NCBI GenBank assembly: GCA_958295855.1
Contig: OY282383.1
Location: 252,481 to 316,480 of the forward strand
Reading direction: 5' to 3'
Source: an uncultured Poribacteria bacterium
Lineage (GTDB): Bacteria; Poribacteria; WGA-4E; WGA-3G
DNA: 64,000 nt
The notes beneath the pieces were generated by a model, which saw nothing but the letters and a program-made list of their open reading frames with translations, was not told the origin of the DNA and did not search any database. The position numbers and the translations under genes are program-made. Shown here piece by piece: positions 4,321 through 64,000 of the stretch; positions within the stretch are counted from its first letter, which is position 1, and every line of letters starts with the position of its first letter.

Positions 4321-4562
4321 GTAGAAAACTTACATCAAAAATCTCCGACGAGATCTACCACAACGTCACAACTACAGCAGAAACCGCCGGAACTAGGCAA
4401 TAACAAAAAATCAGAAACCTCCGACGAGATCTACAGTGCATCGTCAGAACTATCCTGCCAATGGTATTTGCCCCTGCTTTGCAGGGGTTTCATACCAAGT
4501 TGTGAATTTTAATGAACAACTTTTTTATTTCTTACTTATGCTGATTACTCCGCAAGGAATGA
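4321..4562. repeat. composite MITE-like element (family A module, gcccctgctttgcagggg hairpin, TIR ctccgcaaggaatgac)
   Basis: Same module order is seen at 35040-35345, 47800-47950 and 54465-54700. Confidence 0.8.
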
Positions 4563-4916
4563 CAAAGAACCTACAACACGCGTTGACTCTCCATCGGGGG
4601 AGACTTCCCGAAAAAAGCAGGAACGATAGCCGGTATGACACGCTGCTACCTTCTGCTCAACCTTTATGAGCAGGGCATCGCCATCACAATCTACTGCGAT
4701 AGATTTGACTGTCTGTGTATGCCCTGAAGTCTCCCCCTTTCTCCACAATTTCTGTCGGGAGCGGCTCCAGAAGCAGACACGGCCTGTAGCCAAGGTCTCT
4801 TTTATCGCTTCCGGGTTCATATATCCAAGCATCAGCACTTCATTGTTTGTGACATCCTGAATTATCGCCGCGACCAGCCCATCGCGGTCGTATTTAAGTT
4901 CAGATAAAATTTGCAT
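4545..4916 (-). CDS. hisI: phosphoribosyl-AMP cyclohydrolase
   Basis: ...[50 protein letters not shown]...DCDGDALL... is the HisI signature. The C-terminal LSFLAE tail comes from a MITE TIR. Confidence 0.8.
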
Positions 4917-4929
4917 TCAGATTTCCCTC

Positions 4930-5040
4930 CCTAAAGTAGTAGGCCCGCTCCGCGTGCCGTACACACCTAAAGTAGTAGGCCCGCTCCGCGTGCCGTACAC
5001 ACCTAAAGTCGTAGTACGCTCCGCGTGCCGTACACACACA
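4930..5040. repeat. three tandem copies of family C palindromic repeat (aaagtagtaggcccgctccgcgtgccgtacacacct)
   Basis: Period ~35 bp with no unique spacers. Other copies at 5812-5848, 7665-7698, 9573-9600, 9976-10040 and 27785-27815. Variants lie inside murD. Confidence 0.85.
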
Positions 5041-5658: not shown

Positions 5659-5689
5659 ATAGCCATAACAATTGAATAAACTAACGGTT

Positions 5690-5965
5690 CAGGTGCCGAA
5701 TGTCGGTATCTACCCCTGCAAGCAGGGGTAAATGCCCATTACGGAGAATAGGGAAGCGCGGTGAGAATCCGCCACGGCCCCGCCACTGTGAACGATCTTT
5801 TGCTCTAATGAAAAGTAGTAGGCACGCTCCGCGTGCCGTACACACAAATCGACGGGAAGATTTTGTAGAGCAAACTTTGGCTTGCAACTGGTATCTGCCC
5901 CTGCTTTGCAGGGGTTTAATGCCAATGCCCCAAAAGATCGGAAGTCAGGAGACCTGCCTGCATCG
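5690..5965 (+). promoter_or_regulatory. cobalamin (AdoCbl) riboswitch
   Basis: Core AATAGGGAAGCGCGGTGAGAATCCGCCACGGCCCCGCCACTGTGAACG at 5747-5794 matches the conserved GGUGnnAAUCC / CGCCACUGU blocks. The B12 box AGTCAGGAGACCTGCC sits at 5943-5958. The variable region between them contains a family C repeat (5812-5848) and a family B hairpin (5893-5920). Confidence 0.75.
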
Positions 5966-6364
5966 TGTTTCACGCATCTGCTTTCGCGGGAAAGCAGTGG
6001 AACTGCGCGCAGCAGTATCCTGTCAAATGTAGGAAGGGCGAAGTTAGTCACGCATTGGAAATGCGTGCTGAAGTTCTCCCCGATAGAAAGCATAGAGTCT
6101 GCAGGATCCGCCTCATAATCTGTGTCGCCTTGTCCCCTGTCTTTTCTATTATGAAAGCAGGGGTTTCTTGTTTCATAGGGCATTCACCCCTGCTCGCAGG
6201 GGCAATTGCCAGAAGGAGGATTTCGGCGAAGAAGGTTTAGTCACGCATTTTTAATGCATGCTGAAGTTCGTAGCCGAAATTTACTATTAAAAAGTATGAA
6301 CAGATTTTTTTTCACTTGGCGGCATTTCTCAAAGGCATTCACCCCTGCTCGCAGGGGAAACCAT

Positions 6365-7666
6365 ATGCCAGTGTCGAAATCTTACAGACCGCGCTCGCTC
6401 CTACGATTATGCGCGATGCTCTTCACGTTCCTGGTTAGTTCCGCACTTGCACAAACAGAGATAAGCAGTTACCCCGCAAAGCGGGGAAACATACAAAAGC
6501 AAAACATCGCCGTTATCATCAATGCACTGGATAATGACGACTTAAACATCACCACTACACTTTCAATTATCGATCTCGATGAACCCAATGAGAAACGAGC
6601 TGTTGACGGTGAGATACTCCCTATCGGTGATGTACCAAGTGGGCTCCTCATTCACGGGCATCTTGCCTATATCTCCCGTTTCGAGTGGAGTTCGGTGCCT
6701 CGCGGCAGCATCTTAATTGTCAACTTGGAACGGCGAGAGATTATTGGCGAAATTCCGATCGGATACGGGGCTTACCCACAAAGCCTCGCGCTTGTTAATC
6801 CAAACAAAATGTACGTCACATGCGATAACGTCCATCAGGTACAGGTCATTGACATCCCCAACCGCAATGTGACGAAGATTATTACGCATCCTTCCTTCAA
6901 CAAAACGACCGGCATCACGCTGCTCAACGGAAAGGCATACGTCACCAATTCAGCTTGGGAGTGGGATGCGGAAGCGGGCAAATCTATTTATCATGAGAGT
7001 AGCGTCACGGTGATTGATACCGAGTCAGACACCGTCTTGAAGTCTATTCCAATGCCCATCAATGCAGGTGGCATCCTCAACGACGGCGAATCCACAGTGA
7101 TTGTAAAAACAACTGGCGATTCTAATCTGATTTCTGGGAATCTTGTCCTAATTGACGCGACTACCGATGAAATTGTCAAAACCGTTGCACTCAAGGTGAC
7201 TCCAGGAGCCTTTGCAATCAATTCACACAAACAATTGTTTATTCAGGGAGGATGGCAGAACCCCGGTCTACTTATCTACAACGTGCCGACGCAAAAGTGG
7301 ATTCGAGACAAAAATGACGCACTTGTCGATGTCGGCGGCGGGGCCGGGATGACTTTCGCACCGGACGGAAGCCTTTATATCACTTATCCTGACTGGACCG
7401 GGGGAGGGTTATCTCTCGTTCGTGTTCTGGGGCCAGATGGAACCCTGCGCAAAACCTATCAAGCCGGGCACGGTACCAACAATATTGCAATTGCACAGAT
7501 TGTCCCCCGTCCCGAAGATGTGAACGACGACGGGTTTATCGACCTGGCAGATCTGACAATTGCCAGTCGGTACTTAGGCACCAGCGGCGTTGGAATAATT
7601 GGGGATGTCAACGGCGATGGTATCGTTGACATCCGTGACTTGGTGCGTATTGCCCAGCATATATAG
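6365..7666 (+). CDS. secreted YVTN-type beta-propeller protein with C-terminal dockerin-like repeats
   Basis: Signal-peptide-like N-terminus MPVSKSYRPRSLLRLCAMLFTFLVSSALA. Repeated ...YVTC/YVTN... beta-propeller strands. C-terminal DVNDDGFIDLADL / DVNGDGIVDIRDL dockerin-type Ca-binding repeats. A hairpin repeat encodes SSYPAKRGNI near the N-terminus. Confidence 0.7.
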   Translation: MPVSKSYRPRSLLRLCAMLFTFLVSSALAQTEISSYPAKRGNIQKQNIAVIINALDNDDLNITTTLSIIDLDEPNEKRAVDGEILPIGDVPSGLLIHGHLAYISRFEWSSVPRGSILIVNLERREIIGEIPIGYGAYPQSLALVNPNKMYVTCDNVHQVQVIDIPNRNVTKIITHPSFNKTTGITLLNGKAYVTNSAWEWDAEAGKSIYHESSVTVIDTESDTVLKSIPMPINAGGILNDGESTVIVKTTGDSNLISGNLVLIDATTDEIVKTVALKVTPGAFAINSHKQLFIQGGWQNPGLLIYNVPTQKWIRDKNDALVDVGGGAGMTFAPDGSLYITYPDWTGGGLSLVRVLGPDGTLRKTYQAGHGTNNIAIAQIVPRPEDVNDDGFIDLADLTIASRYLGTSGVGIIGDVNGDGIVDIRDLVRIAQHI

Positions 7667-7905
7667 TAGTAGGCACGCTCCGCGTGCCGTATACAAAAGT
7701 GTAGGAGCGCGAAAAGATTTTACCCCTGCTTTGCAGGGGTAAAATACCAGTGTCACAATCTGGTTACTTTTTAGTTGTAGAGTGCTCCCTGCTAATTGCG
7801 GTTGCATGAGAAATCTCCGACGACATCTTCCACTGCGTCACAACTACAACCAAAACCATTGGAACTAGGCAATAACAAAAGATCAGAAACCTCCGACGAG
7901 AGCTA
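7665..7905. repeat. composite repeat block (families C, B, E tail, A)
   Basis: agtagtaggcacgctccgcgtgccgtatac, then ttttacccctgctttgcaggggtaaaatacc, then ...ctccctgctaattg..., then a family A copy. Confidence 0.8.
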
Positions 7906-7907
7906 CA

Positions 7908-9974
7908 ATGCCGTTAAAACTACAGAACGCAGTCAACACACTAGGCATAGACAAAAAATTGCTATTGCTCCCACTGCTTGTCGTCGCTTGCACAACGGAA
8001 ACGAAAGAGAATCCGTTGGCATGGCAGATTACCTTTTTTTCGCTCGGTGCCAAGGTACAGTTTCACAACGAACCACCGATAGCGCGGATTTCTGCCTTCA
8101 ATTCTGACAGAATGCTGGTTGCACAACTCAATTTCCCTGGACCACCCCGACAGATAGAATCGCTCTATTTTGAATGGCAGGAAGGGGAAACCTATAGATT
8201 TGAAGCGGCTTTGCACACGGGGCAAATCAGTGTTCAAACGGTGACTGCCCCGCGTGTGCATGCCCCCGGCAATTTAGAGATTGCTATCCCTTACGGTGCA
8301 GCGAGGCAAGCGACAACGGATGCAACCGCGTCAAAGGCACTCGTGGTACAAGGGAGCGAAATGACAGCCACGCTCATCGTTACAAACGGCAATGCCCCAG
8401 CTACCTTTGAGGTGGAGCTCTGCTTACCATCTACGCTCGATGTCGTCCAATTGCCGATAGAATGGCAAACCGAGACGAACGGCACCGAGACTTGTCTGTT
8501 TACCGCTGGCACCTTTCGCGTTGCATCCGAGGTCTGGTATCGTGAATTAGTTTTGAAAATTCCCCAGAATGGCTTTAAAAACTTACATCAGACGAGAGCT
8601 ACCACAACGTCACAACTACAGCAGAAACCACCCCAACTAGGCAATAACAAAAAACCAAAAATTGCAGGTATCGTCCGTTTTAAGACAGATACCGCACAAA
8701 CTTGGACGCAAAGGACAGAAGTGCAGTTGCGTTCGGCAACAGTAGCAGAAATCGCCGAGCACCTCTCCATAGAATCTATCCAAATGCCTACGGATGTAGC
8801 CGGCATCCCCCATCTGCAGCGACAAACCGATACCATCTATTACCAGCGCCCTTTGTTCCGTTGGTTAAAAATGCCCCAAACTGATGCCTTTCAACCCATA
8901 GCCTACCAGACCGTGCGGCTCCGCAATCAAGCCCAAGAAACTATCCATGTCGTCGTCTCTTCCATCAACCGAGATACGAAGAGTGGCGCAGCAGTGAGGT
9001 TTCTTGCACCGCCGGATGCCGTGAACGCCGGCACAGACCGGAGCATCAGTTTCGCCAGTTTGCCAGGCGGTGAAGTGACAGCAATTCCGCTGCCCATCTA
9101 CTTTCAGTCCCCCCATAGGAGCGATCTCCGAATCGCGACAGGCGAATACGAACGTGACATTGCAGTGAAGGTATGGGGAAGCGACGCGACAATCCTTCGC
9201 GAACAACGCCCACTCCATCTCATCGTTCCAAACCGACATGCGCTGTTTGTGAGTGGGATAGCAATCATCGCGAGCTGCATCGGGCTGATAGTGCTGCTGC
9301 CCTTTAACGAGCGAAGACACAAGCAGTTCTTCGCTCGTTTCACGACTAAACAACTCATCGTCATCGCCCTATTTGGCACAACGATCTTTGTCGTAGTTAT
9401 CGTGCCGTCAACGCTGTTTCTCAACCTCATCCGCGCCCTCCTTGGGCCCGTCTCTGTCTTGCTGACAGGCTTAATTAATGAGACGCTCTATTACGCGTTG
9501 CTGACAGCGTTGCTAATTTATATTAACGGAGCCCCCAGAGCATCCCGCATTACCAGAACCAAAGTAGTAGGCACGCTCCGCGTGCCGTACACAGCTGTCC
9601 ACAAAAGCCGGCCAACCCACGGTAAAGGGGGTGTCATCTTGCTTGTCTCCGCAGTGCGCTTACTTCTCGGCGGGGTTACGTTCGGGCTTTTCACGCCGAT
9701 GACGATTATCTATACAGGCACGAGCGTCCTCCTGCTTGAGACGGGATTTCTGCTCGTACAAAGGCGCGGTTTGCTGGCGTGGGCACTCGTGCTCGGCATC
9801 TGCGATGCAATCGCCGTCTACGTCGATTTTCAACTCTCTATCCTGTTCTACCGCCTCTTTTACGCCGATTGGTATATTATCCTCCGAATTCTGGTGGAGG
9901 GGTTTGCGTATACCTTTATCGGTGTGCTGCTCGGTGCCAGATTAGGACGCGGCCTCCGGCGCGTAGCCGATTAA
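7908..9974 (+). CDS. lipoprotein with large extracytoplasmic domain and C-terminal ~6-TM region (hypothetical)
   Basis: Lipobox-like KKLLLLPLLVVAC. Likely TTG start near 7959, because the first 17 codons are repeat-derived. C-terminal hydrophobic helices. Family A (8585-8650) and family C (9573-9600, peptide VVGTLRVPYT) repeats lie in frame. Confidence 0.55.
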   Translation: MPLKLQNAVNTLGIDKKLLLLPLLVVACTTETKENPLAWQITFFSLGAKVQFHNEPPIARISAFNSDRMLVAQLNFPGPPRQIESLYFEWQEGETYRFEAALHTGQISVQTVTAPRVHAPGNLEIAIPYGAARQATTDATASKALVVQGSEMTATLIVTNGNAPATFEVELCLPSTLDVVQLPIEWQTETNGTETCLFTAGTFRVASEVWYRELVLKIPQNGFKNLHQTRATTTSQLQQKPPQLGNNKKPKIAGIVRFKTDTAQTWTQRTEVQLRSATVAEIAEHLSIESIQMPTDVAGIPHLQRQTDTIYYQRPLFRWLKMPQTDAFQPIAYQTVRLRNQAQETIHVVVSSINRDTKSGAAVRFLAPPDAVNAGTDRSISFASLPGGEVTAIPLPIYFQSPHRSDLRIATGEYERDIAVKVWGSDATILREQRPLHLIVPNRHALFVSGIAIIASCIGLIVLLPFNERRHKQFFARFTTKQLIVIALFGTTIFVVVIVPSTLFLNLIRALLGPVSVLLTGLINETLYYALLTALLIYINGAPRASRITRTKVVGTLRVPYTAVHKSRPTHGKGGVILLVSAVRLLLGGVTFGLFTPMTIIYTGTSVLLLETGFLLVQRRGLLAWALVLGICDAIAVYVDFQLSILFYRLFYADWYIILRILVEGFAYTFIGVLLGARLGRGLRRVAD

Positions 9975-9975
9975 A

Positions 9976-10040
9976 GTAGTAGGCATGCTCCGCGTGCCGT
10001 ACACAGTTTAAAGTAGTAGGCATGCTCCGCGTGCCGTACA
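9976..10040. repeat. two tandem family C repeats
   Basis: aaagtagtaggcatgctccgcgtgccgtacacag appears twice. Confidence 0.85.
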
Positions 10041-10105
10041 CAGCATAGACCTGTCTTGCCTCCTTACTTCTCCGCAAGGAAAGGCGAAAAAGAGGAACTA
10101 TTACA

Positions 10106-11821
10106 ATGAAGCCAATTCAGTTTTTGAGTCTACTCTGTTTGCTAATCGCGCTGCCCATTGTAGGGGTAGTGCCTTGTGCCTACCCTGCCGATATGAACGT
10201 CTTATGGGTTCGGGCGGGGGCAGTGCTCGAAACAGAACATAAACACAACGGTGAACCCAAAATCAACGTTGCAACCATATCTGAAGGGACAACACAAGCA
10301 TTAACAAATACACCAACAATCCAGCGGCTTGATGCGAAGCGTGTGCTGTTGCAATTTGCATGGCAGCCCAACCAAGCCTATCGGTTTCGCATAAATAATG
10401 CCGTAACAGCGGCGACCGCGCCGCTTAAACCGCTCCCGTATCTCATTCGCACAGTCGAATTAGATGGGCTTCTATCGCTCCTCGAAAATCTGCGGCAGCC
10501 CGCGAAACCAACAGCGATTACCCTAGGGCAAAGTAGCACGCACCCCCCGCGGGTTTCCGTACACAGCCGTCCACAAAATGCCCAGAAACTCGCCATCGCA
10601 ACCGACACCGGGCACCTCGCGATTCTCAATCCGCTCACAGGCGAAACGCTTTGGAACACCCGCATCTCGGAAGGCTACGTCAAGCATCTCGCATTTAACC
10701 ACGATAACACCATCCTCTACATTGGGGAACAGGCAGCGGACGGATTTATCTATGCTTATGCTCTGTCGCAGTCTAAACCAGTACTGCTCTGGAAATACCG
10801 CACCGCCGACGACATTGAAACCTCCACACCGAGTGACCCGGGCAGCGTCTACGCTTATGTTAGTTACCCCGGCGCAGCGTGCATCCGAGTCCTGCCCAAC
10901 GGTGATGCCCTCGTCGCCAGCGTGCATTCGTGGACACACAACGGCACGCCACAGCGGAAGTCACAACTCTACCGGTTTAACGGAAAAACAGGCGATGTAG
11001 CATGGAAATGGCCCAGCGAGGGCGCGTCGCCGAAGGTGCTGCGTTGGTTTGACATAAGTGCTGATGGAAAAACGCTGTCCCTGTTAACAGACAACAGCGG
11101 CAAGGGCAACGGCAGACTCAGCGTTCTTGATGTCGACTCCGGCACAGAACAATGGCACGCCAGTTTTGAACCGCTCACGCCCTATTTTGAAGGTGTTAGC
11201 TTTTGGCGCGGTGTTAGCATGGCACCCGATGGTAAGTTCATCAACGTTACAACGGACGACGGACGTGCCTTCATCTTTGACGCGACTGATTCCGAACCGA
11301 TTTGGCATGAAAACTTGGCGACACCGCTCGAGGTCAGCGGCGTGCCGATTATCGCCACAACTGGCACTATTGGTGCGACAGATGCTGCCGCGCTCTTTGT
11401 CACGGGCGATACATACATCCCCTATCATCTCCAGCAGGGCGCGCAACGTCCTTCCACCGCGCACCCGAACGGGATGACGCTATTCGCCTACTCATGGCGT
11501 GGCGAAAAGGCCTGGCAGTGGAAACTAGAGAATATGCCGCAAGGCTTACGCATTGATGCGAAAGGGCGTTATGCTGCGTTGGCTGTCTCCAAGCGGAGCC
11601 AAAACCCGAACGAGAGTCTACACGGCGTTTCCGTGTTTGACCTGACAGCAGAAGGTAGTGGCTTGGCAAAATACCTCTACACCTACCGTACGGAAGGGCA
11701 ACTCCCCTACGATACGCTTGCCATCAGTGCGGATGGCACGCTCATCGCCATCGTTGAGAGGCCGATTGTAATGCCAGATGAGACGGTGCGTGGGAAAAAT
11801 CGGGTGCATGTGCTGTATTGA
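10106..11821 (+). CDS. secreted PQQ/WD40-like beta-propeller repeat protein (hypothetical)
   Basis: N-terminal signal peptide. Repeated ...ETLWNTRISEGYVKHLAF... and ...GDVAWKW... propeller-like blades. A family D repeat encodes VGVVPCAYP in the signal region. Confidence 0.6.
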   Translation: MKPIQFLSLLCLLIALPIVGVVPCAYPADMNVLWVRAGAVLETEHKHNGEPKINVATISEGTTQALTNTPTIQRLDAKRVLLQFAWQPNQAYRFRINNAVTAATAPLKPLPYLIRTVELDGLLSLLENLRQPAKPTAITLGQSSTHPPRVSVHSRPQNAQKLAIATDTGHLAILNPLTGETLWNTRISEGYVKHLAFNHDNTILYIGEQAADGFIYAYALSQSKPVLLWKYRTADDIETSTPSDPGSVYAYVSYPGAACIRVLPNGDALVASVHSWTHNGTPQRKSQLYRFNGKTGDVAWKWPSEGASPKVLRWFDISADGKTLSLLTDNSGKGNGRLSVLDVDSGTEQWHASFEPLTPYFEGVSFWRGVSMAPDGKFINVTTDDGRAFIFDATDSEPIWHENLATPLEVSGVPIIATTGTIGATDAAALFVTGDTYIPYHLQQGAQRPSTAHPNGMTLFAYSWRGEKAWQWKLENMPQGLRIDAKGRYAALAVSKRSQNPNESLHGVSVFDLTAEGSGLAKYLYTYRTEGQLPYDTLAISADGTLIAIVERPIVMPDETVRGKNRVHVLY

Positions 11822-15111: not shown

Positions 15112-15398
15112 GATACTTCTCCTGATAACCTTGGGCGGATTGCTTGAATTTGACCGCGGAGCGAATGTGAGACATAAACTCCGCCTGTCTTGCAAGGAAT
15201 TTGGTGTTAGATATACGGTAAACATGAAAAGTGTAGGGGGAGCAAAGGTTTTGTTGTTCCCCCTACCTTTACTGTCTATTCTGTTAGCGTTTCATTGATT
15301 TTACTTGTGTCATTAGTAACCTGACAAATCTAGTTGTTCCTAGGACAGGCAGGTTCGCTAAAAACGACTCTTCCGACAACTTTGGACTAGCCAAATCG

Positions 15399-15980
15399 CT
15401 AAGATTCATCAGTTGTTACAAGCGCTAGTTTGATTAGAAAGGAGAGGACGCTTTCGATATCCTCTGGGCTCACGTCCCAACCATACTCTCCGGCAACCTG
15501 TCGCACCTCTCCTATTGTACTTTTCCCTCTCCAATTGACAATGTAGTGGACTTTTGCCGCGATGGAAAGCTTGTTAAAATCGTTAGAGATCTCCTGGGCG
15601 TTGAGGTTCTGAAGTGTTTTGTCCCATTTCCGGAAGTCAGGTTTTTGCTGGGTAGCCTCCCAGATGTTTTTAGCATCAGGGGTTAGAGAATAAGCGTGCC
15701 TGCGAATTTCTCCGAAAGCGTTTCGTTCAATTGAAGTGGAAGTAAAAGACTCCGTGACTTCATTGAGGACACCATAGTTTACTAGCCCATCTAGGTGCTC
15801 TGCAATGAAACTACTATAAGGTCCGTAATAGTGTGCGGAGAATCCAAAATTTTCTTTAAGCAAAACGCTGAGAAAATAGATTTTCTTTTGGAGGAGGGTT
15901 CTCCCCTGTAAACCTGTCTCTCCTTCCCTCGCAATAACAAGTAGAAGGACATCGACAATGTGCATGTTGTCTCCTTTCAT
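15399..15980 (-). CDS. Panacea-domain (DUF4065/GepA-like) protein, copy 1
   Basis: LLQKKIYFLSVLL...HYYGPYSSFIAEHLD fits the Panacea LQKLLYF...GPV core. The C-terminal 60 aa are nearly identical to the paralog at 22204-22785. The ~120-bp 3' flank (15301-15420) is also duplicated at 22120-22230. Confidence 0.55.
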   Translation of the reverse strand: MKGDNMHIVDVLLLVIAREGETGLQGRTLLQKKIYFLSVLLKENFGFSAHYYGPYSSFIAEHLDGLVNYGVLNEVTESFTSTSIERNAFGEIRRHAYSLTPDAKNIWEATQQKPDFRKWDKTLQNLNAQEISNDFNKLSIAAKVHYIVNWRGKSTIGEVRQVAGEYGWDVSPEDIESVLSFLIKLALVTTDES

Positions 15981-22118: not shown

Positions 22119-22203
22119 TTAGTAACCTGACAAATTTAGTTGTTTTAGGACAGGCAGGTTCGCTAAAAATGACTCTTCCGACAACTTTGGAGCGGCCAAA
22201 TCG

Positions 22204-22785
22204 CTAAGATTCATCAGTTGTTACAAGCTTTAGTTTGGTTAGAAAGGAGAGGACGCTTTCGATATCCTCTGGGCTCACGTCCCAACCATACTCTTCGGCA
22301 ACCTGTCGCACCTCTCCTATTGTACTTTTCCCTCTCCAATTGACAATGTAGTGGACTTTTGCCGCGATGGAAAGCTTGTTAAAATCGTTAGAGATAGGCT
22401 GGGCGTTAATCAACTCTAGTGCTGCTTTCCATTTTGGAAAATCCGGTTCTTCTTCGAGGTCACTCCATACCTCGCGGCCCCCCTCGGCCAGGGAGTAGGT
22501 GTGCCGGCGAATTTCGCCGAAAACATTTTGATCTTTTGAAGCTGTCGCGAAGGATTCTATCTTTTCATTAAGGAATCCATGGGCAACTAAACTATCTAGG
22601 TGCCCCGCAACCACGCTACTGTAAGGACCGTAGCGATGCGCGGTGAAGTCAAAATTAACTTCCATCAGCACAGATAGAAAGTAGACTTTTTTTTGGAGGA
22701 GCGTTCTCCCTCGTAGTTCGCCCCTGTCTTCGCTATTCACAACGAGTAGAAGAATGTCTATGGTGTACATTTCATTACCTTTCAA
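22204..22785 (-). CDS. Panacea-domain (DUF4065/GepA-like) protein, copy 2
   Basis: LLQKKVYFLSVLM...HRYGPYSSVVAGHLD. Its start overlaps the stop of the upstream HD gene (ATGA). Paralog of 15399-15980. Confidence 0.55.
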   Translation of the reverse strand: MKGNEMYTIDILLLVVNSEDRGELRGRTLLQKKVYFLSVLMEVNFDFTAHRYGPYSSVVAGHLDSLVAHGFLNEKIESFATASKDQNVFGEIRRHTYSLAEGGREVWSDLEEEPDFPKWKAALELINAQPISNDFNKLSIAAKVHYIVNWRGKSTIGEVRQVAEEYGWDVSPEDIESVLSFLTKLKLVTTDES

Positions 22786-53259: not shown

Positions 53260-54297
53260 TTACTTTTTTTCACCTCCTAAATAGATTGTATTTTCAAACC
53301 TTGCATCTACATAAGTGTATGTTGCCTCGGAACTGTCACCAACAGGTGAGCGCATCCAAAGTTTTTGCTGTTTTAAGAATAGAGCAATATGATGAATCCC
53401 CAAGTCAATCATGTCTGCAGCAATCCATGCTGGAAACCGCATCGTGTTGAACTGAATTTTAATCTTCTGCGAATTTCGGGCATCAATACTTTCTATATTC
53501 CTTGCGAGTTCCGGCTCCTCAAACAAGGCGGTTTTTAAGACATCAATTCCTAATTGGACATCAGCCGTTTGGACAAGCGTACCAATTTTAGGCAATTTAT
53601 CGCCTTCTGCAACAAGTGTAACCACGGTATCGGGGAAGGTATCGTCACGCATTGAAAATCCGTGACTAACTTCTCCCCCTCCCACACCCGGGCGGGCCGG
53701 GACGCGAACCGCTTCAACGCTGATAGATTCTAGCACATGTCCTTCAATATCTATTAAAAAAAGCACATTATCGCGGCCTGTGGGCGTCCTGACTGATGGA
53801 TATTTTAGCCTAGCAAAGGGTTCACGCTCCGTAACTTCAATGGTAAGCATCCGCTTCATCAAATGTCTGGACACTCGAGCATCCTTAATATAGCTGAGAC
53901 TCTCCTGGAGATAAGCAGCAGTCTGTTCTTCCGAATTTGTGAGGATATTGTCTAATTTCGCACCTAACACATCATAAACTTGCACCTCAGTATAGTGTAG
54001 GTTTCCGAAAATCTCCAGCGAAATGTGCTCAACACTGAAAAAACGCAACACCGTCTTACCGAGAAATGACAAGGTAACCACGAGCGCGATGATGAAGATT
54101 AGCCGCCGCCAAAGGTACACCTTCGAGCTAGTACGCCTCCCAACCGGTTGGACATGCCTTGCGCTATAAGCATTTCTCCCCCGCTTTGCGGGGGTAATAC
54201 GCCACCTCCGCACATTTCCCCCGCGAGAGCCTCTTTGCGAGCCAGATATAATCTTCATCCAACATATTCCTTTTCCGCATGCCTTGCGGAGTACCAC
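53260..54297 (-). CDS. ftsQ: cell division protein FtsQ (POTRA domain)
   Basis: Position between ddl/murC and ftsA. Single TM LIFIIALVVTLSFL followed by a POTRA-like region. The N-terminal ~40 codons include a hairpin repeat (RITPAKRGRN), so the start is uncertain. Confidence 0.6.
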   Translation of the reverse strand: MVLRKACGKGICWMKIISGSQRGSRGGNVRRWRITPAKRGRNAYSARHVQPVGRRTSSKVYLWRRLIFIIALVVTLSFLGKTVLRFFSVEHISLEIFGNLHYTEVQVYDVLGAKLDNILTNSEEQTAAYLQESLSYIKDARVSRHLMKRMLTIEVTEREPFARLKYPSVRTPTGRDNVLFLIDIEGHVLESISVEAVRVPARPGVGGGEVSHGFSMRDDTFPDTVVTLVAEGDKLPKIGTLVQTADVQLGIDVLKTALFEEPELARNIESIDARNSQKIKIQFNTMRFPAWIAADMIDLGIHHIALFLKQQKLWMRSPVGDSSEATYTYVDARFENTIYLGGEKK

Positions 54298-56336: not shown

Positions 56337-57527
56337 TCAATTCTCCGCAAGGAATGACGAATAAATAGATTGCGCGATGTCATCGCTTGCGCGTGGCTTC
56401 CCAAGTGCTCGGCTTTTGGATACCATCTGTTGATACATTTTCTCATTCATTGTTATTCGGACAAGATGTTCAACGAGTGCATCTGCTGTCAAAATGTGCT
56501 GTTCAAGCACAACTGCTGCCCCGGCACTCGCAATAGTTTGCGCGTTTAAGACTTGGTTATTTCCCGTTTGCGCGGGTAAGGGAATAAAAATAGCAGGGAT
56601 GCCACATGCGGTGACTTCAGAGACAGTCATTCCACCCGCTCTGCACACCATGACATCAGCAATGCTATAAACCTCCTCAACAGCATCAAAGAAAGGTTGG
56701 ACCCGAGATAGGAGCTTCTTTTCAGATGTGGCACTTACCTTATGCTGTGCTTGATACGCTGCCTGTACTGCTTCAGCGTCAGCTGCACCAGTTTGATGCA
56801 CCACCTGGAGCCGGTCTGCAAACGCAGTTAATTGAGGTAGGGCTGCCACCATTGCCTCATTGATTGCACGGGCCCCTTGACTTCCGCCCATGACAAACAC
56901 CGTTTTCCGATTCGGAGACAATCCGAATTTGCTATAAGTTGCTTCACGTCTGGGAGACGCGCTGATTGCAGGACGGATAGGGTTTCCTGTCACTTCAACA
57001 ATCCTTGTAGAAGCACCCTTGTAGGGGCAGTGCCTTGTGCCTGCCCACGCTTTCATAGGTTCCAGCGCGAGATAGACAGCTTTCGCCCAACGCGCCAAAA
57101 TACCATTGGTTAACCCAACAGAAGCATTCTGTTCCTGGATTGCTATCGGAATTTTGCGCAGTGCCCCGGCAAAAAGCACGGGCCCAGAAACATATCCGCC
57201 TGTTCCAATAACTATATCTGGCTTCAGCTGTTTCATATACCTTAACGATTGGCTGAGCCCCCGACAGACTTTCCAGATAACAGGGAACCACTGTAAAGTC
57301 AGACGGCGCGGAAAACCGGCGACAGAAATAGGCAGAAAACGGAAGCCATGTTGGGGCACGAGCGTTGATTCCAATCGTCCGTCACCACCAATGAAGACAA
57401 TATCAACGGTCTCATCTAAGCGTCTTAGTGCTTGTGCGATGCCGATAGCTGGATAGATATGCCCACCTGTTCCACCACCTGACATCACAATTGTGGGAGG
57501 GGTTTGTAACCCCGATAGTGTCCTCAT
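56337..57527 (-). CDS. murG: UDP-N-acetylglucosamine--N-acetylmuramyl-(pentapeptide) pyrophosphoryl-undecaprenol N-acetylglucosamine transferase
   Basis: IVMSGGGTGGHIYPAIGIAQAL. Contains the family D repeat-encoded WAGTRHCPYKG (57020-57050). The C-terminus SSFLAEN comes from a MITE TIR. Confidence 0.85.
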   Translation of the reverse strand: MRTLSGLQTPPTIVMSGGGTGGHIYPAIGIAQALRRLDETVDIVFIGGDGRLESTLVPQHGFRFLPISVAGFPRRLTLQWFPVIWKVCRGLSQSLRYMKQLKPDIVIGTGGYVSGPVLFAGALRKIPIAIQEQNASVGLTNGILARWAKAVYLALEPMKAWAGTRHCPYKGASTRIVEVTGNPIRPAISASPRREATYSKFGLSPNRKTVFVMGGSQGARAINEAMVAALPQLTAFADRLQVVHQTGAADAEAVQAAYQAQHKVSATSEKKLLSRVQPFFDAVEEVYSIADVMVCRAGGMTVSEVTACGIPAIFIPLPAQTGNNQVLNAQTIASAGAAVVLEQHILTADALVEHLVRITMNEKMYQQMVSKSRALGKPRASDDIAQSIYSSFLAEN

Positions 57528-57604: not shown

Positions 57605-58720
57605 TCACTTCTCCGCAAGGAATGACGAAAACCTTGAGACATTGAGTAGAATACCAACACCTAACAAACTGAAGAGAATAGATGAACCGCCATAACTTAT
57701 AAAGGGTAACGTAATCCCTTTTGTCGGTAAGATGCCTGTGACAACCCCAATGTTAATGAATGCTTGTAAACCAATCAGCGTTGTAATGCCCGTAGCGAGC
57801 AGCGATCCAAACAGATCACTAGCATATCGGGCGATGTGCACGCCTCGCCACACAAACAACATGAAAAGCATTGTTACGCCTGCAGTCCCGAGGAACCCGA
57901 ACTCTTCTCCCAATACTGCAAAGATAAAATCTGTGTGCGGATAGGGGAGGCGCACAATTTTCATCACACTACTGTCAATGCCGGCACCGAACAAGCCCCC
58001 CCATTCAAGTGCACTGAGCGAGTGCGTTAACTGATAGTTCGTTGCATCGGGTGATTTCAACATCGCAAAATAATCACTGAACCGTTGCAGTCTATATGGA
58101 TCTCTAATTATCAATAAGCCCAGAAGGCCGCCACCTGCGCCGGCAAGTGCGACGGCATGCATGATGCGAATGCCTCCGATAAATAGCACGATACAGACAG
58201 TTAACGCCAATAGAAACGCGGAACCGAAGTCCGGCTGGCTCGCCACGAGGCCAAAAGCTGCCGCTAAAATTAGCACATTCGGTAGCACACCGTTTAAAAA
58301 ACTTTTCACTCGTTGTGGGTTTCGGCTCACAAAATTCGCGACATGGATGACTAACGCTATCTTAGCAAATTCAACAGGTTGAATATTCACTGGAGAATTG
58401 CCGATTCGGATCCAACGGTTAAATCTGCCGCCTTCCGCCCCTTGTACCCCAGTGCCAAGGAACGGCACAAAAACCAGTAATAACCCGACAAACCCGAGAA
58501 TCAAAAAGAAATTCGCATACAGTGTATAAATTCTGTAAGGCAAATAGGAGACCACCAACATTCCTATCAACCCGATGCTACAGGCGATAATGTGTATCCG
58601 CAAATAACGGTAACTATAACCGTCATACAATCTTGAGGACAGGAGATGGCTTGAGCTATACACCATCAAGATACCTATTGCAACGAGGCAGCATGTGAGC
58701 ATAAGTAGCCATCTATCCAT
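57605..58720 (-). CDS. ftsW: peptidoglycan glycosyltransferase FtsW (SEDS family)
   Basis: Polytopic SEDS protein. Start chosen at MDRWLLMLTCCLV. The longer ORF upstream (to 58918) consists of two family D repeats. Confidence 0.8.
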   Translation of the reverse strand: MDRWLLMLTCCLVAIGILMVYSSSHLLSSRLYDGYSYRYLRIHIIACSIGLIGMLVVSYLPYRIYTLYANFFLILGFVGLLLVFVPFLGTGVQGAEGGRFNRWIRIGNSPVNIQPVEFAKIALVIHVANFVSRNPQRVKSFLNGVLPNVLILAAAFGLVASQPDFGSAFLLALTVCIVLFIGGIRIMHAVALAGAGGGLLGLLIIRDPYRLQRFSDYFAMLKSPDATNYQLTHSLSALEWGGLFGAGIDSSVMKIVRLPYPHTDFIFAVLGEEFGFLGTAGVTMLFMLFVWRGVHIARYASDLFGSLLATGITTLIGLQAFINIGVVTGILPTKGITLPFISYGGSSILFSLLGVGILLNVSRFSSFLAEK

Positions 58721-58901
58721 TCGCCCAGTAGGGGCAGTGCCTTGTGCCTGCCCATCCCACCCCGATTTCCACCCTCGCCCGGACTTCTGGTTAAATGGTT
58801 TCCGCCCCAGACTCCGCTGCTGTACGGGCGATGCCGCAGTGCTCGCCCGTTGCCACTTGTTGTGTCGTAGGGGTAGAGCCTTGTGCCTACCCTGTCCACG
58901 G

Positions 58902-60419
58902 TTACGACTCCAGCGCATTCACGGCCTCCTTAAATGCTGCCCCACGTGCCTTATAGTTGGGGTACATATCAAAACTCGCATTTGCAGGTGACAATAGGAC
59001 GATATCGCCCGGTGTCGCGTGTGTGTAAGCAACCTGCACTGCCTCCGCCATGGTTCTAGTGTTCATTATGTTTGTTAACTTTGCAAGTGTCTTCTGAATT
59101 TGCTGTGTGTGCGCCCCGAGCAGAACTGCCCCTTTGACATGCGCCTGAACCATCTGACTGAGTGGGGTATAGTCGTTTCCTTTATCGTAGCCGCCCATTA
59201 TGAGCAAAATTCGTCTTTGAAAAGTAGCAGGCACACCCCGTGGGTTTCCGTCGCCAACCAAGGATTCAAGCGCCGCCTTCACAGCTGCCACATTTGTCGC
59301 TTTTGAGTCATTGATAAATTCAACACCGTTCAGCATTCTAACCGGTTCAAAGGCGTGGGCTAAAGCAGGATGCGACCTGTCGAATCCTTGGAGTGCTGCT
59401 CGTATTTGCGCCGGTGCCACCTCAAAAATCTGGCCTACAGCAATTGCGGCGAGTACGTTCCGGACGTTGTGCGCTCCCCGAAGGGGAATGTCATCAACAT
59501 CACAAATCCACTGCGAAGTAGCAGGCACACTCCGTGTGCCGTCGCCCAAGTTAGCGAAGAGCCCCATGCCCCCTTCATAAGTTTGAAGATATGTTTGAGG
59601 GTACCACCCTTCTTTAAAAGTAGCAGGCACACTCCGTGTGCCGTCGCCATCAAAGTAGACTGCTTTTGCCGAGGTGAACTCAGCAAAACGGGCAACGCGC
59701 GCATCGGCACAGTTTAGTACTATCCAGTCTGCCGCAGTTTGATTTTGATATATCTTCTGTTTTGCTTTGCAATACGCTGACATTGTTCGATGCCTGTCTA
59801 AGTGGTCGCGCGATAGATTCAGCACAACACTCACCGCCGGCTGAAAGGTGACAGTGCTCTCCAATTGAAAACTGCTCGCTTCAACAACAACGATGTCCCG
59901 GGACGTAAGGTGCTGGACTTCTGCGGCTAACGGAACACCGATATTGCCAGCTACACAAACCCGGGAACCGGGCGGGCGGGAAGCTTTCAGGATAGCGGCA
60001 GTCAGAAGTGTTGTTGTTGATTTCCCTTTTGTTCCAGTAATCGCTACAATAGGCGCAGAACATACCCTCGCTGCCACCTCCAATTCTGCAAGAATCGGGA
60101 TGTTTCGCGCTTGAGCCTCGCACAAGATCGGAATATCCAGCGGAACGCCAGGGGACACAACAATGTAGTCAGCATGCGCAATACACTCCTCTCCATGCCC
60201 ACCTAGATGAAATTCGTAGGGGCAGTGCCTTGTGCCTGCCCTGCCGTACCCCGCCACACCTTTCAGTGCCGCGATTTCTGATGATAAAGCATCAGAGCCG
60301 CGCGAGTCTGTAACAGCCACAACTGCCCCGAGCGCATCTAACAATTTTGCAACAGCGAGTCCGCTTCGGTTTAACCCAAATACAGTGACCCGTTTCCCTG
60401 AAAATTCGTTTTTTAACAT
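58902..60419 (-). CDS. murD: UDP-N-acetylmuramoylalanine--D-glutamate ligase with multiple in-frame repeat insertions
   Basis: MLKNEFSGKRVTVFGLNRSGLAVAKLL, ITGTKGKSTTT and HNVRNVLAAIAV. GDGTRSVPAT appears twice and GDGNPRGVPAT once (family C repeats at 59620-59650, 59515-59545, 59215-59250). GTRHCPY comes from family D (60218-60245). Confidence 0.85.
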   Translation of the reverse strand: MLKNEFSGKRVTVFGLNRSGLAVAKLLDALGAVVAVTDSRGSDALSSEIAALKGVAGYGRAGTRHCPYEFHLGGHGEECIAHADYIVVSPGVPLDIPILCEAQARNIPILAELEVAARVCSAPIVAITGTKGKSTTTLLTAAILKASRPPGSRVCVAGNIGVPLAAEVQHLTSRDIVVVEASSFQLESTVTFQPAVSVVLNLSRDHLDRHRTMSAYCKAKQKIYQNQTAADWIVLNCADARVARFAEFTSAKAVYFDGDGTRSVPATFKEGWYPQTYLQTYEGGMGLFANLGDGTRSVPATSQWICDVDDIPLRGAHNVRNVLAAIAVGQIFEVAPAQIRAALQGFDRSHPALAHAFEPVRMLNGVEFINDSKATNVAAVKAALESLVGDGNPRGVPATFQRRILLIMGGYDKGNDYTPLSQMVQAHVKGAVLLGAHTQQIQKTLAKLTNIMNTRTMAEAVQVAYTHATPGDIVLLSPANASFDMYPNYKARGAAFKEAVNALES

Positions 60420-60639
60420 TCCTTGCGGAGTACTATGCTCCCTCCTGTAGTTTCAAAGCACTTACAAATCTCGTCGGAGGACTCTTAGGTAAAGCTTTTT
60501 ATCTGTTAGTTTCAAAGTGCTTACAAATCTCGTCAGAGGACTCTTAGGTAAACCTTGCATAAAAAACCTCCGACGAGAGCTATAGTGCATTGTTAGAGTT
60601 ATGAAGCAATCTGATTTCTCCGCAAGGGATGCTGGAAGA
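60420..60639. repeat. MITE with inverted termini cattccttgcggag ... ctccgcaagggatg and internal duplicated 60-bp unit
   Basis: Seen in sequence. Confidence 0.85.
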
Positions 60640-61758: not shown

Positions 61759-61922
61759 TTTTTCGTTTTTCCTTGCGGAGAATTGAAAATGCAAGATACA
61801 TCTAACAATGCACTATAGCTCTCGTCGGAGGTTTTTTATGCAAGGTTTACCTAAGAGTCCTCTGACGAGATTTGTAAGGGCTTTGAAACTACAGGAGCGA
61901 GTGTGGTACTCCGCAAGGCATG
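61759..61922. repeat. MITE copy (ttttcgtttttccttgcggag ... gtactccgcaaggcatgttaaaaag)
   Basis: Same architecture as 33876-34035. Confidence 0.85.
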
Positions 61923-63167
61923 TTAAAAAGCTGTGTTCTGGAGCTTTCCATCCTGCTTCAATTTGGCAAAACTTGCCCCCGCTTGGCTGAGCAGATTCGT
62001 TGCATAAGAATAGGTTAATCCTTTTTTCTCCTGATGCACTGAAAATGCTAAATCGATCAGTCGCGAAACTAACTGTGGAAATTCAATTCCTTCCTGCTCC
62101 CATAGGTAAAAACTGAATGAGCCAGGTATCGTATTGATTTCGTTCACATAGACATGTTCCGATGCATCCACAAGGAAATCAATACGAGCGACACCCGCGC
62201 AGTCTAAAACCTGAAAACTTCGTGTCGCAAGCTCCTGAATATGTAACGTCAATTTTTCGGAAATGGGTGCAGGAATTTTGCGCTCTGCCCCTGCCATCCC
62301 GGAAGATTCCGCCTCTTGATGGATATATTTATCCTCAAAACTCAGAAAATTGGACTGAGCCACGGGTTGCTCGCAAACAGAAGGTGTTAACTCATGGCTA
62401 CCCATCACTGAACAGTTGATTTCACGTGCCTCTTCCACACCTTGTTCGATAAGAATCCTGCGGCAGTACTGCCCGGCGAGCTCAACAGCAGGGAGGAGTT
62501 CCACACGACTTTTCACAGAACTGACACCGATGCTTGAACCGCTCATTGCGGGTTTCACGAAGAGCGGGTAGGATAGCATGGCTTCTACCTTTTTGATGAT
62601 GTCGGGGCCAAGCGTTTCCCACTGGTACTGCGTCCACCACAAATAGGGGAGAATTGGCAACTTATTCTCATTGAGAATCGCCTTCATCATGATTTTATCC
62701 ATACCCACAGCGGAACCCCCTACACCTGCTCCAACGTACGGGAGATGCATCAACTCAAGCAGCCCTTGGAGCGTTCCATCTTCGCCGTGCGCACCGTGTA
62801 TCGATGGAAACACGACATCAACAGGGAGCTCCATTTTCTTCCGAAACCACTGTTTGGTGTAAACAACGAACTTGGGAACGGCATCAAATTCAACAGTCAC
62901 CTTGTCAAAATCGGACGAACGCGGCAGGCTCCCGTCGGTGAATACGCTCAAATCACGAAGACCTTCGCCGGTTAACCACTCGCCCTCCTTGGTTACATAA
63001 ATGGGGATGACGTGATAGTTTTCTTCCAGAGCCGCACAGACCTGATGTGCGGTGACGATAGAGACTTCGTGCTCCGGGGAGCGGCCTCCAAAAATGAGGG
63101 CTACATTATGTTTAGACATTTTTTTTAACATTCCGTTAATTGGGTTTCTGCTCCGATTTTTCCGCAT
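61923..63167 (-). CDS. ddl: D-alanine--D-alanine ligase
   Basis: ...KHNVALIFGGRSPEHEVS... and an ATP-grasp fold. The true start is probably the internal Met near 63119 (MSKHN), because the first 16 codons run into a family E repeat. Confidence 0.8.
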   Translation of the reverse strand: MRKNRSRNPINGMLKKMSKHNVALIFGGRSPEHEVSIVTAHQVCAALEENYHVIPIYVTKEGEWLTGEGLRDLSVFTDGSLPRSSDFDKVTVEFDAVPKFVVYTKQWFRKKMELPVDVVFPSIHGAHGEDGTLQGLLELMHLPYVGAGVGGSAVGMDKIMMKAILNENKLPILPYLWWTQYQWETLGPDIIKKVEAMLSYPLFVKPAMSGSSIGVSSVKSRVELLPAVELAGQYCRRILIEQGVEEAREINCSVMGSHELTPSVCEQPVAQSNFLSFEDKYIHQEAESSGMAGAERKIPAPISEKLTLHIQELATRSFQVLDCAGVARIDFLVDASEHVYVNEINTIPGSFSFYLWEQEGIEFPQLVSRLIDLAFSVHQEKKGLTYSYATNLLSQAGASFAKLKQDGKLQNTAF

Positions 63168-63464: not shown

Positions 63465-64000
63465 TCAATTCTCCGCAAGGGATGCCGAAGAGTCCTCGTT
63501 GTAGTTGTCGGGCAAATCGTTCTCAAAAAGGACAACATCCCCGGGTTTTAAGAGCTTCGCCAAATATTGTCGTACCTCTACAAGGTTCATGGCGATAATA
63601 ACTTGTTGGCTTGGGTAATTGGCTGCTTTCAAGCCGCTTAATATCGGGGTAGTTCTTGAAGGGCCCACTAAGATAACAAGGTCACATACCTCGGCAGCTT
63701 GCAAACCAAAGCGTTTATTATCTTCGTATTCCCTTTCACCGAGTTCCACCATGCCGGGTGTCACCAGCACCTTTTTTCCATGCCCAATCTCGGCGAGTAC
63801 TTCAAGTGCCGCTTTCGCACCAACAGGATTCGCGTTGAAACTATCGTCGATGATAGTTACATTTCCTGCCCCGGCTGTCAACTGCAAGCGATGCGCGACA
63901 GGTTCTACGTTCGCAATCGCTTCACGAATCTCTTCTAGCGTCATCCCGCATGCTAAGGCGACACCCATCGCGGCAAGGATGTTAGAGACGTTATGTTTAC
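63465..64000 (-). CDS. murF: UDP-N-acetylmuramoyl-tripeptide--D-alanyl-D-alanine ligase, C-terminal part (5' end outside window)
   Basis: ...IDDSFNANP, LVTPGMVELG and LVILVG form the Mur ligase C-terminal domain. The tail SASLAEN is MITE-derived. Confidence 0.8.
   Translation of the reverse strand, partial: KHNVSNILAAMGVALACGMTLEEIREAIANVEPVAHRLQLTAGAGNVTIIDDSFNANPVGAKAALEVLAEIGHGKKVLVTPGMVELGEREYEDNKRFGLQAAEVCDLVILVGPSRTTPILSGLKAANYPSQQVIIAMNLVEVRQYLAKLLKPGDVVLFENDLPDNYNEDSSASLAEN

Follow-up and report, generated by a model that had tools for sequence, protein, structure and literature searches.

Rickettsia palindromic elements (RPEs), reportedly described by Ogata and colleagues in 2000 and 2002, are said to be inserted in frame in many genes, some of them essential, at surface positions compatible with the protein fold; RPE-1 is about 100-150 nt long and restricted to Rickettsia. 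In Cyanobacteria, small dispersed repeats, which are very short mobile palindromes within genes and structured RNAs, were reportedly described by Elhai and colleagues in 2008. Here we report the analysis of a 64-kb stretch of DNA from an uncultured Poribacteria bacterium (contig OY282383.1), hereafter the window, in which the murD gene encoding UDP-N-acetylmuramoyl-L-alanine--D-glutamate ligase (58902-60419, - strand; 505-aa open reading frame, ORF) hosts four repetitive extragenic palindromic (REP) elements of two families, C-type and G-type. These repeats are very probably elements of a REP system mobilised by a REP-associated tyrosine transposase (RAYT) and inserting widely, with selection keeping the in-frame, stop-free copies in permissive loops as neutral passengers. 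The preliminary description of this DNA had likened the murD repeats to RPEs, and the comparison is apt, as both are inserted in frame within ORFs at structurally permissive sites. The murD elements thus work like an RPE but are no RPE, because they are 26-32 nt long and occur in Poribacteria and Planctomycetota; they are also GTAG-tagged and RAYT-associated, and their hosts are free-living or host-associated bacteria with 5-Mb genomes, and sequence similarity to RPEs is not expected. A parallel to the cyanobacterial repeats is provided by a C-type copy in a cobalamin riboswitch of the window, although the sequences and the phylum differ.

With the described REP-RAYT and REPIN systems (Nunvar 2010; Bertels & Rainey 2011, PMC3116915; Quentin et al. 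2018, PMC6006769) the elements share a GTAG tag next to a hairpin and a REP-bracketed RAYT of the Y1/HUH type. In contrast to typical REP-RAYT systems, an identical 23-nt core is found in two phyla and a high fraction of the copies is intragenic (9 of 25 in the window). Inverted doublets, as in REPINs, are the usual arrangement of the planctomycete C-type copies, whereas most poribacterial copies, including those in the window, stand alone or form direct tandem arrays. A catalogue of GTAG/CGTC REPs located in frame within ORFs was published in 2013 by Di Nocera, De Gregorio and Rocco (PMC3733652), therefore the phenomenon is less novel than the preliminary description implied. According to that survey, its hosts from the PVC group included Opitutus terrae and Rhodopirellula baltica, the Rickettsia elements RPE-4 and RPE-6 were classed as tagged REPs, REP termini supply stop codons, and a neutral location in linkers or loops was proposed. 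The surveyed elements are likewise 5' GTAG hairpins, mostly intergenic, with a minority located wholly within ORFs and in frame, where they encode about 7-30 extra residues, sometimes twice per gene. Their hosts are mainly replication and repair genes, whereas here essential cell-wall and division genes are affected, one of them by four elements from two families, and filled and empty alleles occur between near-identical genomes. The accessible part of the survey includes no Poribacteria or Mur ligase, and no family with a GGCAC core appears in its supplements. Our literature search found neither the C-type core in the text of any paper nor palindromic repeats in Poribacteria, CRISPR mentions apart. 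New here are the phylum, the cross-phylum REP-RAYT pair, the essential cell-wall hosts, the filling of all four loops by two families, and the near-identical filled and empty alleles.

Three of the four murD elements are C-type, and all of them have the GTAG strand on the + strand of the window. At site 2 (59620-59648) and site 3 (59518-59546) the exact 29-mer GTAGCAGGCACACTCCGTGTGCCGTCGCC is read from the - strand as GDGTRSVPAT (aa 258-267 and aa 292-301, respectively); it has two exact matches in the window, with 0 expected from shuffles. The copy at site 4 (59224-59255, +; GTAGCAGGCACACCCCGTGGGTTTCCGTCGCC) has 32 nt, 3 nt more than the other two, and is read as GDGNPRGVPAT (aa 389-399); this 'GGGTTTCC' subvariant recurs elsewhere, so it does not represent random decay. 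The element at site 1, in a hypervariable loop, is G-type (60216-60241, +; GTAGGGGCAGTGCCTTGTGCCTGCCC; AGTRHCPY, aa 61-68). All four elements are in frame, and the three C-type copies translate in one common frame. Single copies of the peptide DGDGTRSVPATF are too short for a protein-database search, as E values above 10 would be needed.

The preliminary description had correctly recognized three in-frame copies of a palindromic repeat, now resolved into two exact 29-mers and a 32-nt subvariant, and had overlooked the fourth, G-type element. Its assignment of these copies to an abundant intergenic family needs to be qualified: the repeat is genuinely dispersed, but the intergenic copies of the window (starting at 4936, 4972, 7666, 9976 and 10013) belong to a sister subfamily, and the exact murD subtype occurs within the window only in murD. 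Insertion between Mur-ligase segments, as proposed there, holds for sites 3 and 4 but not for site 2, where an ancestral loop of similar length was replaced with no net insertion.

Under the operational definition, a REP is a 20-40 nt unit with GTAG or GTGG 0-2 nt 5' of a hairpin, the stem of which has at least 7 fully paired basal base pairs, a GC-rich base and a loop of 2-5 nt, or else forms a bulged long hairpin (PMC6006769). The C-type element consists of GTAG, 2 nt and a perfect GC-rich 7-bp stem, GGCACAC/GTGTGCC, closed by the 3-nt loop TCC; the hairpin of the exact murD copies has a dG of -7.4 kcal/mol (z -3.7), whereas that of the site-4 subvariant is weak (z -0.08) and no longer folds well. 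In the G-type element the stem follows GTAG directly and comprises 6 bp and a wobble pair, a 1-nt bulge and 2 more bp, a borderline long hairpin by the stem criterion. Both types fit the definition of GTAG-tagged REPs. The window contains 10 C-type and 15 G-type copies, and 16 of these 25 lie outside protein-coding ORFs even though ORFs fill most of the window, as expected of a repeat with many dispersed, mainly extragenic copies. The murD C-type copies match the canonical consensus, including its GTCGCC tail, while the sister subfamily, GTAGTAGGCAyGCTCCGCGTGCCGTACAC, is about 79% identical to them and differs in the stem by the compensatory pair CGC/GCG versus CAC/GTG. Stop codons are confined to a single one of the six frames in each of the two elements, so that an open frame in any given copy is unsurprising, and the real constraint is a net length change that is a multiple of three. 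An Rfam scan of the window at gathering thresholds matched no family to the repeats and returned a cobalamin riboswitch as its sole match. The elements are also not miniature inverted-repeat transposable elements, which are defined by the terminal inverted repeats of a parent insertion sequence and a target-site duplication, because the filled and empty sites show no target duplication and target bases are replaced instead.

The host gene is intact. All three domains of MurD (MurD-like_N, Mur_ligase_M and Mur_ligase_C) were identified by Pfam, a sequence search of the PDB matched solved MurDs at E 4e-64, and the AlphaFold (AF2) model of the protein (pLDDT 80, pTM 0.83) reaches a TM of up to 0.88 in superpositions with solved MurD structures. 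The murD ORF is uninterrupted and lies within a syntenic dcw cluster, and homolog comparison showed that its P-loop and catalytic residues are invariant. As judged from these comparisons, the Mur-ligase core and its catalytic residues are preserved despite the inserts.

The preliminary description had proposed an alignment with orthologs and a mapping onto structure, and its insertion reading survives both. In the following, numbers with the prefix L denote related DNA loci and those with P denote MurD homologs. Among 120 poribacterial MurD homologs, only the closest relatives, P0002 and P0006 (90-93% identical), have the repeat peptides; in P0003-P0005 (79-82% identical) these positions are either empty or filled by unrelated sequence, and about 115 orthologs (~65% identity) have short native loops there. 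MurD of E. coli likewise has nothing at the insert positions, which align with its residues 50/51 (site 1), ~228-240 (site 2), 245/246 (site 3) and 336/338 (site 4), the last falling just ahead of the strand leading to K348. The four sites are the sole internal indel hot spots across the 120 MurDs, and P0044, from a distant lineage, has independent, unrelated inserts at three of them. The AF2 model places each of the four peptides in coil; of its four segments with a pLDDT under 50, three fall on insert peptides, including aa 57-64 (site 1) and aa 391-399 (site 4), and site 3 sits in the loop joining strands E286-292 and E301-307. Given the Rossmann-like fold topology, the insert loops would lie on the side facing away from the ligands.

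It is exceedingly improbable that the peptides are ancestral MurD sequence that happens to resemble the repeat, or that murD is a decaying pseudogene or an assembly artefact. It is true that the loops of sites 1 and 2 also vary in other Poribacteria, where their length is similar, and that murD is split into two ORFs in L005. However, the peptides are missing from the ~115 orthologs, the murD DNA equals the dispersed REP consensus base for base, the inserts are also found in the independent assemblies L001, L002 and L005, and the ORF in its syntenic dcw cluster is intact with invariant catalytic residues. The frameshift in murD of L005 is probably a sequencing error, because that contig has many other 1-nt indels, for example in ftsZ. 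These ancestral, pseudogene and artefact explanations are thus largely refuted. The L005 split, into ORFs of 411 aa and 98 aa, is accompanied at site 4 (L005 5694-5724) by an additional tandem 31-nt C-type copy, GGCTAGCGACGGCACGGGGTGTGCCTGCTAC; we set the frameshift aside as evidence of an out-of-frame insertion, while the extra copy itself may be real. A 39-nt murD segment found only in the window is not a dispersed repeat. More remote relatives have a matching stretch, KEGMYPQTY, so L001 has probably lost what was ancestral sequence.

Comparison of close relatives shows that REP movement in this lineage is recent and continuing. Identity between the window and L001 is 96.5% for murD and 97.4% for murG, and genomes that are 96-98% identical differ by whole REP units in murD, murG, murF and the FtsW tail. 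At site 1 of murD, the window and L001 have the G-type element and L005 a C-type element of equal length at the same position. The site-2 element is present in L001 and L005, with unrelated sequence instead in L003, L004 and L006. Site 3 has 33 nt in the window versus 12 nt (AATGGGGTAGCG) in L003, L004 and L006, a net gain of 21 nt, and the region of site 4 is empty in all distant orthologs. In murG, a G-type element (57021-57046, +) converts RL to WAGTRHCPY in frame, with a net gain of 21 nt; it is present only in the window and absent from L001 and L005 (97.4% nucleotide identity in murG) as well as from L003, L004 and L006. The murD peptides are therefore insertions rather than ancestral sequence, with site 3 and the murG site providing filled and empty alleles. 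Two further G-type elements are located in the N-terminal tail of FtsW, one found only in the window (58867-58892, +; GQGRHKALPL; +24 nt) and one shared with L001 and partly duplicated in L005 (58728-58753, +; QAQGTAPTG). In L001 and L005 this tail carries a C-type element (RRSVPAT), and their murF contains a G-type element read in the frame that is also used in murD and murG. The dcw clusters of the window and of L001 each hold eight copies, C-type and G-type taken together, and there are none in relatives of ~80% identity.

The indels between near-identical genomes also reflect a selective filter. Between the window and L001, a length divisible by three is found for 11 of 13 indels in genes but for just 3 of 13 intergenic ones (Fisher p = 0.005); the two non-triplet genic indels are at gene termini, and without them p = 1.5e-4. 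The frame of the FtsW tail is conserved across the clade, every indel there being a multiple of three, and nearly all larger indels between L001 and L005 (~98.5% identical) are repeat units. At the murG (57021-57046) and FtsW (58867-58892) sites, the empty alleles of L001 have CTTR (CTTA, CTTG) where the filled alleles have CTAC, the complement of the GTAG tag, and the new 21 or 24 nt lie 5' of CTAC on the coding strand. The CTTR of the empty sites, seen in these two cases only, may indicate a target preference.

A candidate mobilising enzyme was identified in related genomes. In L101, a Poribacteria chromosome, a 213-aa ORF has as its best NCBIfam match NF047646, 'REP-associated tyrosine transposase' (E 2.8e-14, against E 0.07 for the IS200 model), contains the motifs NHVH (HUH), WQ and YIRKNP (YIxxNP), and is bracketed by C-type REPs, one of which ends at its start codon. 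The RAYT genes of L248, L249 and L250 are likewise directly flanked by C-type REPs; therefore the C-type element is a bona fide REP of a two-phylum REP-RAYT system. A search with the L101 protein returned 1350 homologs, the best 120 of which were inspected: they are 72-95% identical in Poribacteria and 57-66% in Planctomycetes, some are labelled RayT by JGI, and four were assigned to genomes with C-type REPs. With E. coli RayT as a query, Y1_Tnp ORFs passing the Pfam cutoff were detected in metagenome loci. The stop codon of a RAYT gene in L138 and in L234 is directly adjoined by the exact G-type 26-mer, with related REPs upstream and, inverted, downstream; a RAYT-like ORF in L137, similar to the L138 RAYT (E 4e-27) and with no Pfam match alone, is also flanked by G-type REPs. 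At the level of the families, both elements thus flank a cognate RAYT. Two REPs are even inserted in frame in a RAYT ORF, at positions 1-501 of L171 (PF01797, 26.4 bits), where they lie between the HUH motif and the WQ motif; one is the exact G-type 26-mer, read as GQAQGTAPTG. These genes surfaced once a metagenome scan had provided closer seed sequences; a phmmer search with E. coli RayT gave no match among 6323 ORFs from the first 125 loci, all-against-all clustering of repeat-neighbouring ORFs produced no recurrent transposase, and a PDB sequence search with the poribacterial RAYT found no match at E up to 1.

In the REP-RAYT interpretation, a Y1/HUH RAYT would mobilise the REPs as single-stranded hairpins that land genome-wide. 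Copies in essential genes are kept only if the net change is a multiple of three, the frame is free of stops (5 of 6 frames) and they sit in a permissive surface loop. Of such loops MurD has exactly four, all of them occupied in this lineage, and the REPs are predicted to be translated as loop extensions of 8-11 residues. The peptides are most likely neutral passengers rather than functional motifs, and since they also occur in unrelated planctomycete proteins and in the RAYT ORF of L171, they are not specific to any host protein.

Several observations weigh against this interpretation. The poribacterial RAYT scores below the curated cutoffs (21.0 versus 23 bits for Pfam Y1_Tnp; 53 versus 80 bits for NCBIfam), and the NF047646 scores of 53 and 69 bits are RAYT-specific yet below 80. 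We only infer mobilisation in this genome, because no RAYT was found in the 64-kb window, nor on the 5,501,248-bp contig of the genome among the best 120 of 1350 homologs and 10 clusters. The insert lengths do not correspond to a fixed unit (net +21, +24 and +27, and a replacement at site 2), therefore each event must also have lost target bases or undergone later trimming. Finally, three C-type copies lie within 430 nt of murD, two of them identical over 31 nt, and this clustering could partly reflect local copying or gene conversion, not three independent transpositions.

Taken further, one founder copy could have seeded the others mainly through local events such as intragenic duplication, slipped or template-switch repair at hairpins, or gene conversion, which we regard as an unlikely origin for most of the murD copies. 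The identical 31 nt at sites 2 and 3 lie at a distance of 102 nt and share orientation and frame, the additional tandem copy in L005 adjoins the site-4 copy, the 'GGGTTTCC' subvariant is present at three nearby sites in L005, and all 10 C-type copies of the window have a single orientation. However, the flanks of the murD copies are not duplicated, the C-type family is dispersed in the window and in two phyla with a cognate RAYT, site 1 holds different families in the window and L005, and the recent G-type gains in murG and ftsW occurred without a tandem neighbouring donor. Local copying can nevertheless contribute alongside transposition.

We also considered that the elements are kept for a function, either as hairpins in the polycistronic dcw mRNA that affect processing, stability or translational pausing, or as selected peptide loop motifs. 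According to the 2013 survey, REPs in other bacteria influence mRNA stability and termination (PMC3733652). Here, the two exact murD copies retain a perfect hairpin, the 23-nt core is conserved across phyla, and the dcw cluster is unusually dense in elements, with 8 copies in 14 kb and none in the ~80%-identity relatives. Against such a function, the presence of elements varies among 96-98% identical genomes, one site can hold different families, the site-4 copy is retained though its hairpin is lost, identical peptides occur in unrelated proteins and linkers, and model confidence is low in the insert regions; the conservation of the core is explained by its recognition by a conserved RAYT. 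A functional explanation is thus very improbable. Improbable, too, is the broader proposal that the C-type REP and its RAYT form one ancient Planctomycetota/Poribacteria system that still varies the lengths of essential envelope enzymes in this poribacterial lineage, with the repeated occupation of the four MurD loops by different REP families resulting from DNA-site targeting or selection on dcw-mRNA hairpins, not from mere tolerance; the 23-nt core is unchanged across the two phyla while the RAYT has diverged to ~60% identity.

The nine copies within protein-coding ORFs of the window comprise four in murD, one in murG, two in the FtsW tail, and one each in a membrane-protein ORF and a beta-propeller protein. 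The former, a 688-aa ORF (7908-9974, +), has no Pfam match and is a putative gene by its length and predicted membrane helices only; it contains a sister-subfamily C-type copy (9564-9592, +) in frame and on the same strand, read as KVVGTLRVPYT. In the PQQ-like beta-propeller ORF (10106-11821), a G-type copy (10160-10185, +) encodes IVGVVPCAYPA in a putative signal-peptide region. Intergenic C-type REPs, all on the + strand, form two tandem pairs, at 4936-4964 and 4972-5000 and, directly past the stop codon of ORF 7908-9974, at 9976-10004 and 10013-10041; a single copy (7666-7694) abuts the stop codon of ORF 6206-7666. A further C-type copy (5815-5843, +) lies in the expanded variable region of the cobalamin riboswitch (5674-5975; Rfam RF00174, 64.4 bits), which spans 302 nt against a 189-position model and has a 135-nt insert against 53 model positions. 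The same region contains a CCCCTGC...GCAGGGG hairpin repeat (~5878-5928), and an ORF on the opposite strand (5710-6183) is spurious. All 10 C-type copies have the GTAG strand on the + strand, whatever the orientation of the gene, whereas G-type copies are found in both orientations. The + strand has a negative GC skew throughout the window, and the uniform C-type orientation would fit replication-coupled, strand-specific insertion.

Both families extend well beyond this genome. Among the matches listed, the 23-nt C-type core, GTAGYAGGCACRCTCCGYGTGCC, is exact in more than 119 reference-genome stretches, nearly all from Planctomycetota or Poribacteria, and the G-type 26-mer is exact in more than 120 metagenome contigs with GC contents from 32% to 72%, often in pairs with partners that have covarying stems. 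In metagenome-assembled planctomycete genomes, C-type copies encode the same peptides between the PSD4 and PSCyt3 domains in L012 and between a helicase core and DUF3516 in L095, both confirmed by Pfam. Most other long REP-spanning 'ORFs' in high-GC planctomycete loci look spurious, and only these two were accepted.

Other repeats of the window are also associated with genes. A ~100-nt repeat, family D3, is translated in frame in two of them (3550-3646 and ~8555-8660), as SQLQQKPLELGKDKR between the two Pfam domains of trpE (ORF 2725-4320, -; anthranilate synthase component I) and as SQLQQKPPQLGNNKK in the membrane-protein ORF 7908-9974; thus in-frame repeat insertion in this genome extends beyond the REP families. 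At least five genes, trpG, hisI, murG, ftsW and murF, take their final codons and stop codon from the D6 repeat, with TTCTCCGCAAGGAATGAC (2091-2110, 4545-4565, 56337-56360, 57605-57630 and 63465-63490), and their products end in SFLAE, SFLAEN, SFLAEK or SLAEN; in relatives without D6, the C-terminal tails of MurG and FtsW differ and are longer, by ~20 aa and 2 aa, respectively. Near the N-terminus of FtsQ (ORF 53260-54297, -), a 27-nt in-frame insert found only in the window (54185-54211), GCGGAGGTGGCGTATTACCCCCGCAAA, resembles the CCCC(T/C)GC hairpin repeats and is unique at up to 3 mismatches. Long inverted repeats bracket mraY (60410-60630 and 61770-61930), with arms of 121 nt and 88 nt, each at 91% complementarity, that are built from ~90-nt intergenic repeat families, and the dcw spacers are much longer in the window than in repeat-free relatives. 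A 300-nt direct repeat (15341-15640 and 22146-22445; 91% identical) overlaps two paralogous 193-aa ORFs (15399-15980 and 22204-22785) located within a putative defence island (~12-28 kb), a region with large ORFs of helicase, methylase-like and HD-domain type.

The murD locus offers a view at base-pair level of a selfish hairpin repeat lengthening the loops of an essential drug-target enzyme that is predicted to remain intact. The near-identical filled and empty alleles catch the insertion process under way, and the contrast in indel lengths between genes and spacers provides a direct measure of the selective filter. Experiments on intragenic REP insertion are feasible, because contigs that contain the REP-RAYT pair include some labelled as the cultured species Pirellula staleyi (DSM 6068). 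For metagenome-assembled poribacterial genomes, REP inserts inflate length variation and can yield split or over-extended gene calls.

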